Shown here one piece after another: positions 755 through 30,074 of a stretch of DNA of 64,000 nucleotides. Origin of the DNA: a virus (Duplodnaviria > Caudoviricetes); IMG/VR virus record IMGVR_UViG_3300005077_000001, positions 192,336 through 256,335 of that record, one strand, 5' to 3'. Each line of letters starts with the position of its first letter. Within the stretch, counting starts at the first letter, position 1. Below the pieces are notes generated by a model. It was given only the letters and a program-made list of their open reading frames with translations, did not search any database and was not told the DNA's origin. Both the position numbers and the translations under genes were made by a program.

Positions 755-996
755 TATTAGATCCTACTTATAAGATAGATAAAGAGAACAGAAAAGTACG
801 CCCTGAGAAAAAAGGATATGTAGTTTTTATTGAATTGAAAACTGGAGATAGAATTATAGGTAGGATAGTGAAGTCAGATTCTACAACTCTATATGTAGAA
901 ACTTTAAATGAACCTAAAATTATAAAAGATGTGCATCGTGTATTTATAAAAAGGAGATTTGTAATATTGGAAGGAGGCAAAGGTGACAGAAAATAA
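751..996 (+). CDS. small beta-rich protein, possible Sm/Hfq-like fold
   Basis: VFIELKTGDRIIGRIVKSDSTTLYV resembles the Sm1 motif (V.I.L.NG..I.G.I...D...L.L); ATGA overlap with ruvC. Confidence 0.4.
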   Translation: MILDPTYKIDKENRKVRPEKKGYVVFIELKTGDRIIGRIVKSDSTTLYVETLNEPKIIKDVHRVFIKRRFVILEGGKGDRK

Positions 997-2371
997 TAAC
1001 ATGCCAATGGAAGAGATTATTCAATCTCTTATTAAACAAGGGTATCAGATTACTAAACCCGAAGATAGAAAGAAGAAAATAAAATTAATTTTTTATGGTG
1101 ATTCCCCTACTGTAGCTACTGGCTTTGGAACTGTAAGTAGGAATATTTTGTTAGGGCTATTTAGTACAGGAATGTATGACATTCAAGTATTTGGTGTCAA
1201 CTATATGGGACAACCACATAATTTTCCATTCCATATTTATCCTATGATCTTAAATAATGAAAAAGACCCATACGGAAGAAAGTATTTTGAGAATTTATTA
1301 CCTCAATTAGATTTTGATATTCTATTGATGAATCAAGATAGTTTTATAATTAAAGATTTCTTAAGAGGAGCTATTAATGAAAGTAGAAATAGAGGAAAAA
1401 GATTTAAAACAGTAGTATATTTTCCAGTAGATGGGAAGCCTAAGCGAGATTGGATAGAGTCTATGAGTTTATGCGATCAGCCTATAACTTATACTAAATG
1501 GGCCCAGAAACAATGTATTTCTGTATTTCCAGACATTAATGATAAATTAGATTATGCATATCATGGTGTAAATATGGAAAATTTCTTTCCATATCCAGAC
1601 GATGTGAGAAAACAACTAAGGCAACGATATTTTAATAAACATGCAGATAAGTTTATTATCCTTAACTTAAATAGAAATCAGCCTAGAAAAGATATTCCCA
1701 GGAGTGTTGCTGCTTTTAAGGAATTTAAAAAAGATTATCCTAATAGTGTTTTGTACTTGCATATGGCTGTAGTAGATTTTGGTTGGAATATGGCAGAAGT
1801 ATGTAACCAATTTGACTTAGTTGTTGGAGAAGATGTACTGTTTCCTAATCCAGAAACATTTACTACACAATCTGGGTTTCCTATACATGTAGTTAATGAG
1901 CTTTATAATTGTGCTGATGTTTGTATTTCTACTACTTTAGGTGAAGGGGTAGGTCTTTCATTACTTGAAGCAATGGCATCTAAAACTCCGTTCATTGGTC
2001 CTAACAACACTGCTTTATCTGAATTATTAGATGAAGGAAGAGGCTATTTAGCAGAATGCTTTAATAATAAATCTATGTTTGTTGTTCTTTCTCATGATAA
2101 CGATGTTGTAAGACCACTCACAGACGTTTACTCTATGGTAAAACAATTAAAGAAGGTATATGATAATCCTGATAAGGCAAAGATAACAGCTGAGCGTGCT
2201 TATAAATGGGTTAAAGATAATTTATCTTGGGAAAAAAACATAGTTCCTATTTTTCATAATCATATTTTAAAATTATATGATGACTTACAATCAGCTGGAG
2301 TTATACTGCCCACTATTGAAGGACCAGCTATATTACAAAAGCCTGACTGGAAGAAAGGAGAGGTTGTTTAA
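983..2371 (+). CDS. GT-B (GT4-like) glycosyltransferase
   Basis: N-terminal DSPTVATGFG loop, NRNQPRKD, and STTLGEGVGLSLLEAMAS (EGFGL..LEAMA signature). Confidence 0.85.
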   Translation: MTENNNMPMEEIIQSLIKQGYQITKPEDRKKKIKLIFYGDSPTVATGFGTVSRNILLGLFSTGMYDIQVFGVNYMGQPHNFPFHIYPMILNNEKDPYGRKYFENLLPQLDFDILLMNQDSFIIKDFLRGAINESRNRGKRFKTVVYFPVDGKPKRDWIESMSLCDQPITYTKWAQKQCISVFPDINDKLDYAYHGVNMENFFPYPDDVRKQLRQRYFNKHADKFIILNLNRNQPRKDIPRSVAAFKEFKKDYPNSVLYLHMAVVDFGWNMAEVCNQFDLVVGEDVLFPNPETFTTQSGFPIHVVNELYNCADVCISTTLGEGVGLSLLEAMASKTPFIGPNNTALSELLDEGRGYLAECFNNKSMFVVLSHDNDVVRPLTDVYSMVKQLKKVYDNPDKAKITAERAYKWVKDNLSWEKNIVPIFHNHILKLYDDLQSAGVILPTIEGPAILQKPDWKKGEVV

Positions 2372-3516
2372 TGTCAGATACTACAACAAAAGGAATTAAA
2401 TTTCATAGCTCATTTTTGGATGGTTCAGGCTATGGGAAATTTGGTAGAGATTTTTTAAAATTACTAATTAAAAAAAACATCCCTGTTTCAACAGGTATTG
2501 TTACTTTTGAGAAGGAAAATCAAAGACCAAATTTAGGGGATTATGGAAAACAAATTGAAGCATTATCGGAAGTTAATATACAGTCTGATATTATATTGAG
2601 TGCTTTAACCCCAGATATAGCTATTAGGTTTATTGACCCGTCAAAGGTAAATATTAATTGGTTTTTTTGGGAATGTCAAGAAGGGATTCACCCTCTATGG
2701 GCCGATTGCTTGCAGAAGTTTGATGCTATAATAACTAGTTGTGAATCAGCTAAGCAATGCCTAATTTCTTCTGGTATTCAAACTCCTATTTATGTTGTTC
2801 CGGTTAATATGGAGTTTAATAAATACATCCCAAAAGAAAAGCCCAATTTGGATGATACATATAATTTTTATTCAATTTTTCAATGGCAAGAAAGAAAAAA
2901 CCCATTTGGGTTACTTAAAGCTTACTTTAGAGCTTTTAGTGATAAAGATAACGTTATGCTTGTTCTGAAAACTTATTTAACTAGAATGCAGAATGATTTA
3001 AATCAACAGGATATGATAAAGAACTATCTTAATGGGTTAAAACAAACTATGCAATTTAATAAGGGATTTCCTAAAGTCTATTTAATTACAGATGTATTGT
3101 CTGACGAAGAAATAGAAAATATGCATAATGAACTAGATTGTTATGTGTCTATGGATAGAGGAGAGGGGTGGTCTCTTCCTTGTGAAAATGCTATGCTTGC
3201 TGGCAATCCTGTTATAATTCCTAAGCATACTTCTTATTTAGACTATACAAATGAAGATTTAGTCTATTACATAGAAGGTCAATTGGAACCAACATTTGGA
3301 CTTACTCCATTTTACCCTGGTGATATTTGTACTTTTTTCAATCCTAGCATTCTTGAGGGCGCTGAAAGAATGAGGTATGTGTTTGAAAATCGTGAAGAAG
3401 CTTTCGAAAAAGGAGCTAAATCAAGAGAGTATATAATGCAGAATTTTAATGAGGATAAAGTGTTCAACACTTTTGTTAAGTCTATTATTGATATAGTTAA
3501 ATCTAAAAGGAGGTAA
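2371..3516 (+). CDS. GT-B (GT4-like) glycosyltransferase
   Basis: SGYG loop, WQERKN, and RGEGWSLPCENAMLAGNPVI signature. Confidence 0.85.
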   Translation: MSDTTTKGIKFHSSFLDGSGYGKFGRDFLKLLIKKNIPVSTGIVTFEKENQRPNLGDYGKQIEALSEVNIQSDIILSALTPDIAIRFIDPSKVNINWFFWECQEGIHPLWADCLQKFDAIITSCESAKQCLISSGIQTPIYVVPVNMEFNKYIPKEKPNLDDTYNFYSIFQWQERKNPFGLLKAYFRAFSDKDNVMLVLKTYLTRMQNDLNQQDMIKNYLNGLKQTMQFNKGFPKVYLITDVLSDEEIENMHNELDCYVSMDRGEGWSLPCENAMLAGNPVIIPKHTSYLDYTNEDLVYYIEGQLEPTFGLTPFYPGDICTFFNPSILEGAERMRYVFENREEAFEKGAKSREYIMQNFNEDKVFNTFVKSIIDIVKSKRR

Positions 3517-28963: not shown

Positions 28964-29127
28964 CAGGTTATGTAACAAAAGAACTTATAGAAAGGATGAT
29001 TTATGAAATGCCTAAAATGTGTAATGCGGATTTAAAAATATACATTTCTAAATCTGAAGCAGAGTTTTTAGAGAGTAAAGGTTTAGTAGTTAGAAACAAT
29101 CCGATATTTGTTGTTGGAGAAAGATAA
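28960..29127 (+). CDS. small hypothetical protein (55 aa)
   Basis: Hand-read ORF filling the gap, with ATGA and TAATG overlaps. Confidence 0.5.
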   Translation: MTGYVTKELIERMIYEMPKMCNADLKIYISKSEAEFLESKGLVVRNNPIFVVGER

Positions 29128-30074
29128 TGCGGTATTTATTAATAGGCGGTGCTGGATTTTTAGGACAAGCACTAACAAAACAGCTATTAAAAACTAAAGG
29201 TGTAAAAGTTGCCATAATGGATAACTTTAGTTATTCTGATCCTGATGATATGATGAAAGATCCACGAATAGAAACTAGCTACGGAGATGCTGGAAGCCAA
29301 GCTTCATTTCAATCCGCTGTAAATCGATTTAGTCCTGATATAGTAATACATATGGCAGCTTTTCATGCTTTTAATTCTGGATCAGATCCAAGATTAGAAA
29401 CGGCTAGAGTAAGTAATGGCCTATTGCATATCATTCCTTTGATCTCACGTAAAAGACCTAAATTATTTATATATACTTCAGCAGATTTTGCCTATATGCG
29501 TAATGCTAAAATTAAATCTTACACTGAATCAGATACCCTTAACTGGGGAACATCTGATACTCATTCGATGCAGAAAGTCATAGGGGAATGGTATACCGTA
29601 GCTAATTGTAAACGATACAGAATTCCTTACATGATTATACGCCCATCTTATTTGATTGGTAATCGTAATTATGCTAACTCGTTTATAGATCCAGTAATTT
29701 TCATGATAGAAAGCTTATTACAAGAAAGACCTTTTATTCTTACTAGACCAGACCAAAAACGTGACTATATTCATGTTGAAGATGCTGCTAAAATGATAGC
29801 AGGTTTAATTCGTTCTGAACAATATAATACTTATTATAATATAAGTACTGGAAAAGGTGTATCTAACAGAGCATTGTTTGCAAAAATATCTAAGTTACTA
29901 GATATAGGGAGTGAAGCACAAGTAGTAGAAAGCAAAGAATTAGATTTAGTACTGAATAATTCAAAAGCTATGAGCCTTATTAAACCAATAGAATTCAAAC
30001 CTGTAATTGAAACGTTATCAAACATCATTTCCTATAGGAGGAGCCTACGTGTTATTCCAGAAGAAAGCGAATAA
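29127..30074 (+). CDS. extended-SDR epimerase/dehydratase with atypical HxxxK
   Basis: IGGAGFLG, DNFS, HMAA, HSMQK in place of YxxxK, RDYIHVED. Confidence 0.75.
   Translation: MRYLLIGGAGFLGQALTKQLLKTKGVKVAIMDNFSYSDPDDMMKDPRIETSYGDAGSQASFQSAVNRFSPDIVIHMAAFHAFNSGSDPRLETARVSNGLLHIIPLISRKRPKLFIYTSADFAYMRNAKIKSYTESDTLNWGTSDTHSMQKVIGEWYTVANCKRYRIPYMIIRPSYLIGNRNYANSFIDPVIFMIESLLQERPFILTRPDQKRDYIHVEDAAKMIAGLIRSEQYNTYYNISTGKGVSNRALFAKISKLLDIGSEAQVVESKELDLVLNNSKAMSLIKPIEFKPVIETLSNIISYRRSLRVIPEESE

Follow-up and report, generated by a model that had tools for sequence, protein, structure and literature searches.

A conserved island of predicted glycan genes with a sulfation arm in a clade of jumbo phages

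Why would a bacteriophage carry genes for building a sulfated, O-methylated glycan and no genes for exporting it? The question is raised by positions 983-30074 of the window that we analysed, the last 64 kb (192336-256335) of the 256,335-bp IMG/VR record IMGVR_UViG_3300005077_000001; coordinates are those of the window unless marked "genome". This stretch is a conserved, lineage-specific island of predicted glycogenes, which include nine glycosyltransferase (GT) genes and genes for sugar-nucleotide enzymes, two methyltransferases, a sulfotransferase and CysC, the adenosine 5'-phosphosulfate (APS) kinase that supplies 3'-phosphoadenosine 5'-phosphosulfate (PAPS). Our tentative answer, which as a whole we judge possible rather than probable, is that the phages of a jumbo-phage clade make their own O-methylated, sulfated heptose/deoxyhexose oligosaccharide and cover virions or another phage macromolecule with it; assembly would take place wholly in the cytoplasm, by the nine GTs, with PAPS derived from host APS via CysC.

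The DNA is of phage origin. The source is a virus record with a CheckV completeness of 97%, and it encodes a large terminase (genome 61865-63544; Terminase_6N 44 bits, phrog_2 E 4e-26) and a major head protein (genome 88042-89130; phrog_2522 E 4e-17). These results settle a point that the first-pass annotation, made from the letters of the window, had left to the full record. The G+C content is ~31%, and nearly all genes of the window are on the + strand, as are all of the glycan enzyme and homing endonuclease genes whose limits are given below. No tyrosine-type integrase (Pfam Phage_integrase) was matched in the phage, although serine recombinases were not searched. The phage looks like a lytic-type jumbo phage, and classical lysogenic seroconversion is less likely because no such integrase was found.

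What sugar would these enzymes make? The first-pass annotation listed gmd, fcl, three further short-chain dehydrogenase/reductase (SDR) genes, an HddA-like kinase and a ManC-like gene, and all of them were found with family-level support. The SDR encoded at 14957-15940 is a predicted GDP-heptose C4 dehydrogenase of the Cj1427 type, matching over its full length PDB 6VO6 (245 bits, E 1.4e-71), which we take to be Cj1427. The S..YxxxK triad is present and the dehydratase TDE motif is not. Its closest bacterial orthologues (42-46% identity) come from many aquatic phyla, and 12 of the 24 best bacterial loci have an HddA-like kinase gene at most ~5 kb away, and at most ~3 kb away in 11 of the 12. 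An Fcl-like gene is also close by in most of them; the one locus examined by Pfam, from Verrucomicrobiota, has the order SDR, NTP-transferase, GHMP kinase, Fcl-like. In the phage, the GHMP sugar kinase (23494-24480; NF049969 86 bits, cut-off 600; 49% identity to its counterpart in G001, a related phage described below) is by its sequence clearly a member of the HddA family. Its best solved relatives are the heptose kinases 3K85 (E 1e-27), 4USK and 4N3O, and heptose-7-phosphate is its predicted substrate. Because of the match between 14957 and 6VO6, the heptose-kinase relatives and the bacterial gene neighbourhoods, we favor a GDP-heptose core for the pathway. The same evidence strengthens the parallel with Campylobacter heptoses that had been drawn from the letters alone.

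Other enzymes would complete this module. The GDP-fucose-synthase-like 3,5-epimerase/4-reductase (Fcl-like; 18074-19117; NF047922 174 bits, cut-off 500; 47-49% identity to relatives) scores higher against the human (150 bits) and E. coli (127 bits) GDP-fucose synthases than against C. jejuni MlghC (95 bits). It may perform both the epimerase and the reductase steps; no cupin C3/C5 epimerase (dTDP_sugar_isom, RmlC-type), the role of Cj1430/MlghB/DdahB, was matched in the genome. Two further SDRs are encoded, a divergent candidate RmlD-like reductase (19119-19985; Epimerase family E 2e-10, weak RmlD matches, 35-36% identity to relatives) and a predicted nucleoside diphosphate (NDP)-sugar epimerase/reductase (29127-30074; Epimerase family 104 bits) whose solved relatives are generic only. 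A ManC-like sugar-1-phosphate nucleotidylyltransferase (48171-49316) is a candidate for the HddC/ManC role; it matches TIGR01479 at 53 bits, far below the cut-off, and the T. maritima mannose-1-P guanylyltransferase 2X5S at E 6.5e-12. A HAD-family hydrolase (49885-50517) might be a GmhB-like phosphatase or a nucleotidase, and its matches (HAD_2 27 bits, a weak match to NT5C, none in NCBIfam) are too unspecific for the name GmhB. The conserved core thus appears to be a kinase / nucleotidyltransferase / C4-oxidase / epimerase-reductase module of the capsular GDP-heptose type, and Gmd does not appear to be part of it.

Gmd is probably an add-on of this phage that opens a 6-deoxyhexose (fucose, rhamnose, 6-deoxytalose) or 6-deoxyheptose branch. 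Together with the Fcl-like enzyme it makes up the de novo GDP-L-fucose pair, both members of which are encoded. The gene (3969-5972, 667 aa) is split by an intein, so that TIGR01472 matches in two stretches (371 bits) with LAGLIDADG_3 between them. The intein spans 343 aa (aa 181-523, nt 4509-5537; LAGLIDADG_3 at aa 406-467) and is of class 1, with Ser181, a terminal His-Asn523 followed by Ser524, an endonuclease domain and colinear exteins. The junction reads NHE/S...HN/SPRRG, and the joined exteins restore the NHESPRRG of bacterial Gmd. Gmd is not at the syntenic slot in the relatives L003 and G001, and no true Gmd was found in the recovered 86% of G001.

Which enzymes would assemble the chain? 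The first-pass count of about nine GT-like genes agrees with the nine soluble GTs that we found at or adjoining the positions it listed, again with family-level support. Three are GT-B enzymes. The first (983-2371) is GT4-like (Pfam Glycos_transf_1 40 bits, GT4-conflict 31 bits; 49-50% identity to relatives), and its best solved sequence relative is the chlorovirus GT B736L (3OY2, E 1.7e-6). The second (2371-3516) matches phrog_2170 glycosyltransferase at E 6.5e-24 and relatives at 38-39% identity. The third (8547-9530) is GT-B-like, of the CgeB/Glyco_trans_1_2 type (PF13524 32 bits, RXYLT1_C 25 bits); its start had been placed at 8604, which falls inside this open reading frame (ORF), but the gene itself is real. 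It is conserved in relatives and duplicated in G001. Its AlphaFold2 (AF2) model (confidence score pLDDT 65) gives weak GT-B matches led by alpha1,3-fucosyltransferase and chlorovirus A075L (template-modelling (TM) score 0.3-0.55), which with a weak model and TM <=0.55 are leads only.

The other six are GT-A enzymes. Two paralogues of the GT2 type (mutual E 7e-27) are encoded at 6687-7556 (Pfam Glycos_transf_2 E 1e-4; 38-42% identity to relatives) and 24481-25398 (Glycos_transf_2 34 bits; 51% identity to ENA contig L109). The remaining four have no Pfam match and are the weakest GT calls; they look GT2-like by ESM-Atlas features and predicted structure alone. The paralogous genes at 11928-12797 and 12787-13713 (mutual E 3e-51) resemble GT2 families and viral clusters (Atlas features 0.97, structure TM 0.57), and relatives carry a single copy of this pair at 46-51% identity. 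The protein encoded at 25415-26482 resembles viral GT2-like clusters (Atlas features 0.97; 38% identity to L109), and that at 26709-27620 resembles GT2 families in structure (TM 0.69-0.72; 51% identity to L109). The nearest Atlas clusters of the GT-A proteins are phage-only. The hydropathy scan found no hydrophobic segment in any GT, and NCBIfam gave no specific name to the GTs, the methyltransferases or the HAD hydrolase.

The two S-adenosylmethionine (SAM) methyltransferases, the sulfotransferase and the APS kinase claimed from the letters are all present. The methyltransferases are a class I enzyme (10488-11207; Methyltransf_23 E 3.6e-9; 36-38% identity to relatives) and a Methyltransf_24 enzyme (11217-11927; PF13578 32 bits; 35-44% identity). 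The PAPS-dependent sulfotransferase (13735-14451; Sulfotransfer_1 E 1.2e-6) has the 5'-phosphosulfate-binding (5'-PSB), 3'-phosphate-binding (3'-PB) and C-terminal motifs (IPKSGT, YRHPLDVAVS, TFR..G..W), which are invariant in three phages. Its AF2 model (pLDDT 71) has the SULT fold (TM 0.64), with small-molecule SULTs and StaL as the closest folds, a predicted similarity that is uninformative on the class of acceptor. Its gene shares a 7-nt overlap with that of the APS kinase CysC (14445-14954), which matches PF01583 at 90 bits (cut-off 21), NF004041 at 112 bits (cut-off 127) and relatives at 40-47% identity. ATP sulfurylase (PF01747) and CysD-type PAPS_reduct (PF01507) have no match in the 256-kb genome, and therefore APS must be supplied by the host.

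This sulfation arm is rare among GenBank phages. By tblastn the sulfotransferase matched none of 50,697 GenBank phage records, and the APS kinase matched 5 of the 50,697. A profile search of 1.84 billion representatives recovered a tight sulfotransferase subfamily of 13 members at E <= 1e-30. Three of the 13 were looked up beyond those already known: L110 (a 2.7-kb fragment) and L112 share synteny with the island, and L111 does not. L111 (Logan ERR14373510), a 17-kb contig of many small ORFs, encodes two Sulfotransfer_1 proteins, a GmhA-like SIS_2 protein, a 763-aa GT4, an NTP-transferase, a GT2 and a radical SAM protein, and appears to be a differently organised sulfation/heptose island. A metagenome scan with the sulfotransferase profile gave just two loci, at 22% identity and sharing no other gene. 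In relatives, a Sulfotransfer_2 gene and a third methyltransferase gene adjoin CysC, an arrangement not found in this phage. The Sulfotransfer_2-like gene at genome 42224-43036 was considered as the counterpart of this second, CysC-adjoining sulfotransferase and rejected, since alignment shows a different paralogue with PNTGG replacing the PKxGG loop. Its G001 orthologue (71744-72721, TKTGG) lies within the structural block just upstream of a giant ORF.

Is the pathway free of export genes and complete in itself? The former statement holds across the whole 256-kb record. In a crude hydropathy scan none of its 302 ORFs, and none in the island, had more than four hydrophobic segments, and the initiating transferases Bac_transf and Glycos_transf_4 had no match in the whole genome. 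The latter, a "complete, self-sufficient" pathway, does not stand, because genome-wide searches show that ATP sulfurylase, CysD and GmhA are not encoded. GmhA (SIS_2) had no match in the 256-kb record, and the host would supply this step.

Relatives of the island were found by homologous-protein search, profile search and contig look-ups, starting from the sulfotransferase; single-protein IMG/VR scans with 12787 and 13735 gave no match. One of them, G001 (IMGVR_UViG_3300005077_000489; 211 kb, G+C content 38%), keeps synteny with this phage over almost the entire genome, with proteins that are 25-60% identical. Synteny of the island extends, at 33-51% protein identity, to at least four other uncultured phage contigs (G001, L003, L112 and L109). 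The order common to G001, L003 and L112 is GT-B, GT-B, GT-A, CgeB-like GT, methyltransferase, GT-A, methyltransferase, sulfotransferase, CysC, SDR (14957), Fcl-like, SDR (19119). Beyond this last SDR, G001 has RNase HII and then the HddA-like kinase (49% identity), after which its contig stops, and L109 repeats the block of GTs 24481, 25415 and 26709 followed by a PD-(D/E)XK nuclease (38-51% identity). Homing endonucleases, the 11928/12787 duplication and Gmd vary among relatives. That gene order is kept and catalytic motifs are invariant despite such deep divergence speaks for a working island, not for decaying cargo, and suggests that the island is under selection. The huge phage LR756502, the best GenBank match of 14957, was considered as a related locus and set aside, as it has no comparable island.

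Three mobile inserts interrupt the island, which bears out the interleaving with homing endonucleases described at first: a free-standing LAGLIDADG endonuclease at 7576-8595 (LAGLIDADG_3 with a Myb-like N-terminus), another at 9530-10540 (Pfam; a member of a paralogue family) and a third at 19969-21042 (Pfam). The genome has ~18 such free-standing paralogues (window 7576, 9530, 19969, 31962, 42860 and 55626, plus ~12 sites), many with a Myb-like N-terminal domain, scattered between genes at positions that differ among relatives. An Rfam scan of the window matched no family and thus gave no sign of group I introns next to the endonucleases.

Taken in order, these enzymes suggest a pathway, whose sugar-nucleotide, GT, methylation and sulfation steps we predict from enzyme families with considerable confidence. 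The HddA-family kinase and the ManC-like nucleotidyltransferase would feed a GDP-sugar pool, most likely of GDP-D-glycero-D-manno-heptose from host heptose-7-phosphate, plus GDP-mannose. From GDP-heptose, the Cj1427-type C4 dehydrogenase and the Fcl-like epimerase/reductase would make an L-configured heptose. The intein-bearing Gmd would add, in this phage only, a GDP-4-keto-6-deoxymannose branch leading to fucose or another 6-deoxyhexose, and the two further SDRs would serve as alternative reductases or epimerases. The nine soluble GTs (three GT-B, six GT-A) would then assemble an oligosaccharide, to be O-methylated by the two SAM methyltransferases and sulfated by the PAPS-dependent sulfotransferase with PAPS made by phage CysC from host-made APS.

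Where would this glycan be attached? On this point we are close to evenly divided, with doubt slightly ahead, in proposing by analogy that the chain grows in the cytoplasm with a phage macromolecule as its immediate acceptor, most likely virion surface proteins such as head-decoration or fibre proteins. Cytoplasmic assembly is suggested because the GTs have no hydrophobic segments and the genome encodes no polytopic membrane protein, Bac_transf or Glycos_transf_4. The outcome would be an anionic, methylated glycan coat on the virion, parallel to the way in which chloroviruses glycosylate their capsids, mimiviruses their fibrils and mycobacteriophages their capsid and tail-tube proteins with enzymes of their own. 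Plausible surface acceptors, or carbohydrate-binding virion decorations, are the members of a head-proximal paralogue family (genome 68853-86584) with Laminin_G_3/ConA-like, CBM_5_12 and F5/8 type C (discoidin) domains and Ser/Thr/Gly-rich linkers; one paralogue has a purple-acid-phosphatase-like domain.

Several points weigh against this reading. The island is part of the replication module, both in this phage and in G001. It is flanked by replisome genes and does not adjoin structural genes: upstream are a clamp-like protein, RecA, DnaB, DnaG and RuvC, and downstream are a PD-(D/E)XK nuclease, PolA, ThyX, Dam, NrdD, UDG, a type II restriction-modification (R-M) pair, a dNMP kinase and a ClpB-like ATPase. 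GT genes are not linked to structural genes; the sole related gene inside a structural block is the distant Sulfotransfer_2-like paralogue, in G001. We identified no acceptor protein, carrier or targeting motif. Every NCBIfam equivalog score of the sugar enzymes is below its cut-off, which keeps the assignments at family level, and the ManC-like gene is a weak match that lies 18 kb downstream of the island. Finally, soluble GTs would equally suit extension of a host undecaprenyl-linked primer.

This last point leads to remodelling of the host envelope, a rival that we consider unlikely, if not strikingly so. At the inner side of the membrane, the GTs would extend a host lipid-linked primer (undecaprenyl-diphosphate-sugar or lipid A-core), and a host flippase or ABC transporter and ligase would display the sulfated, methylated glycan, either blocking superinfection or keeping progeny off infected cells and debris. 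This is the standing hypothesis for the 24 lipopolysaccharide ('LPS') genes of the lytic cyanomyovirus P-SSM2 (PMC1079782), and a cultured cyanophage has a comparable island of ~22 kb that includes HddA, GmhA, GTs and a methyltransferase. The phage's sugar module is of the bacterial-capsule type, non-initiating O-antigen and capsule GTs are normally soluble, so that the lack of transmembrane segments is no counter-argument, and the position among replication genes, a class that many phages transcribe ahead of virion genes, would be in keeping with action on the host. However, the phage encodes no initiating transferase, flippase, polymerase, ABC exporter or ligase, so that every membrane step would have to be borrowed and a foreign glycan tolerated. 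In addition, no tyrosine-type integrase was found in it, surface turnover would have little time within a lytic cycle, and the nearest relatives of the GT-A enzymes are phage-only clusters, not bacterial O-antigen GTs. Counts from sigma-70 promoter and terminator scans of window 1-36000 were at chance level and gave no operon boundary or timing class.

The remaining readings are less probable. The soluble enzymes might modify another cytoplasmic product, either host flagellin, pilin or S-layer precursors or a soluble sulfated glycoconjugate or glycolipid for takeover or for release at lysis, which we regard as improbable. In its predicted fold the sulfotransferase most resembles small-molecule SULTs and StaL, but this says nothing on the acceptor, and the island has no polyketide synthase, nonribosomal peptide synthetase, lipid synthase or carrier protein. 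One point in favor is the CgeB-type GT (8547), whose family is linked to spore-surface glycosylation inside the mother cell. DNA, which the first-pass annotation also offered as a substrate, is disfavoured, and we consider a sulfated/methylated oligosaccharide on a modified base, defeating host nucleases, to be very improbable. The island does lie within a replisome and nucleotide-metabolism module, and phage GTs encoded next to polymerases, clamps or helicases are able to attach saccharides of one to three units, heptose among them, to 5-hydroxymethylcytosine (10.1101/2023.12.21.572611). But the genome has no match to a ThyA-type hydroxymethylase/5hoC synthase (PF00303), TET/JBP (PF12851) or a C5 methyltransferase (PF00145), the only known sources of a sugar-accepting hydroxyl (PMC13326640), and thus no known route to a sugar acceptor on DNA. 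Moreover, dTMP is made via ThyX, Dam and the type II R-M pair imply accessible, methylatable bases, and nine GTs are far more than any known DNA glycan needs. It is scarcely credible, finally, that the island is decaying cargo, a set of horizontally acquired bacterial capsule genes that no longer function. Many mobile endonucleases lie among the genes, Gmd contains an intein and the neighbouring DUF1848 gene has an in-frame TAG; against this, all of the glyco-genes are intact ORFs, and gene order, sequence and the catalytic and PAPS motifs are kept in the relatives described above.

How does the island compare with systems that are already known? The first-pass annotation presented it as its best candidate for an undescribed system, which overstates the case, because export-free sugar islands of 20+ genes have long been known in cyanomyoviruses (PMC1079782) and giant viruses have clusters with GTs, methyltransferases and sulfate-metabolism genes (PMC9614988). 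P-SSM2 has a 24-gene 'LPS'/carbohydrate island of unproven function (PMC1079782), and Synechococcus phage SynMITS9220M01 has one of ~22 kb with HddA and GmhA. These cyanomyovirus islands also combine epimerases/dehydratases, GTs, kinases, nucleotidyltransferases and methyltransferases in lytic phages without export genes. They differ in that the stretches examined have no annotated sulfotransferase or APS kinase, and they are hypervariable, whereas the present island is syntenic across its clade. Their proteins are 24-30% identical to those of the island, and they belong to T4-like Kyanoviridae rather than to an unclassified jumbo clade.

Among giant viruses, the glycogene clusters of Megavirinae (Moumouvirus australiensis, Tupanvirus, Cotonvirus) hold GTs and methyltransferases, and several have sulfate-metabolism genes such as SAT/APS kinase (PMC9614988); chloroviruses encode Gmd and GDP-fucose synthase (PMC9614988, PMC4691112). 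Giant viruses and chlorovirus PBCV-1 share with the island virus-encoded, export-independent NDP-sugar enzymes, many soluble GTs and methyltransferases. Here, however, the virus is a tailed phage with a bacterial host and a predicted GDP-heptose-type module, and a dedicated sulfotransferase occurs with CysC and without ATP sulfurylase. Sequence similarity between the giant-virus enzymes and the island proteins is marginal (30 bits).

The capsular heptose pathway of C. jejuni comprises GmhA, HddA, GmhB, HddC, Cj1427, Cj1430 and Cj1428, as well as DdahA/B/C (PMC10680097, PMC7949155). It shares with the phage a kinase of the HddA family, a C4 dehydrogenase of the Cj1427 type, a C4 reductase of the Fcl family, a dehydratase of the Gmd family and, by prediction for the phage, O-methylation of the product (PMC10680097, PMC7949155). 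The phage lacks GmhA, the cupin C3/C5 epimerase and Kps export, and its Fcl-like enzyme is closer to the bifunctional GDP-fucose synthases. Identities are ~30-45%, with all scores below equivalog cut-offs.

In the rhizobial NodPQ-NodH and mycobacterial CysDNC-Stf0 systems, a carbohydrate sulfotransferase is paired with its own dedicated source of PAPS. Unlike these systems, the phage has the kinase step only and relies on host APS, and its sulfotransferase is Sulfotransfer_1/SULT-like. Mycobacteriophages encode soluble GTs that act in the cytoplasm, with glycans on capsid and tail-tube subunits (Freeman et al. 2023, cited in PMC12619734), and the island GTs are predicted to act in the same compartment. 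The mycobacteriophage systems consist of 2-4 genes, use host NDP-sugars and are not known to include sulfation, whereas the present island has ~20 genes, which cover sugar-nucleotide and PAPS steps too, and a virion target that is only a candidate. What is unusual about this locus is that a sulfation arm is tied to a nine-GT GDP-heptose island and stably inherited in a jumbo-phage clade.

The wider setting of the island holds several further observations. The bacterial homologues nearest to 14957 are scattered (Verrucomicrobiota, SAR86, Omnitrophica, cyanobacteria and others) and the window has no tRNAs; inference of the host failed. The polymerase region had no blastn match among GenBank phages. 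Non-glycan genes within 983-30074 include RNase HII, a terminase-ATPase paralogue, DUF1848 and a PD-(D/E)XK nuclease. There are two diverged RNase HII paralogues (21285-21959 and 47524-48174, 29% identity). Within the replication module, 22031-22951 encodes a protein of 306 aa that is paralogous (33% identity) to the ATPase domain of the large terminase of this phage (genome 61865-63544); G001, as far as it was recovered (86%), showed no separate copy. The DUF1848 gene (16846-17673) is one frame broken by a single TAG (17062-17064), apparently at a Trp position. It may be a pseudogene, an error or a case of readthrough; TAG ends 21 other genes, so the genome is not recoded. Downstream are the Dam methylase (37977-38777), the type II R-M pair (N4/N6 methylase and EcoO109I-like endonuclease, 45917-47543) and the ClpB-like AAA+ ATPase (AAA_2 and ClpB_D2-small, 53719-55647), which has a 37%-identical copy in LR756502. 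Elsewhere in the record, an ORF of 12,315 aa (genome 102050-138997) has a 13,616-aa counterpart in G001 at 48% identity.

Why would a sulfated phage glycan matter? Glycans of virions and hosts decide adsorption, immune recognition and the evasion of defences. To our knowledge, phage-made glycans have been shown chemically only for glucosyl- and arabinosyl-DNA and for mycobacteriophage capsids, and our literature search found no paper on phage-made sulfated glycans. If our proposal is correct, a bacteriophage would for the first time be seen to make a sulfated glycoconjugate, a bacterial-virus counterpart of the fibril and capsid glycans of giant viruses. Phage glycobiology would then extend to complex, charged (sulfated) and methylated glycans. 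Viral cysC and other sulfur 'auxiliary metabolic genes' would supply PAPS for sulfation, not sulfur assimilation. The enzyme set may also be a source of candidate GDP-heptose-modifying enzymes, GTs and a carbohydrate-type sulfotransferase. The autonomous glycosylation known from giant viruses would have a counterpart among tailed phages.

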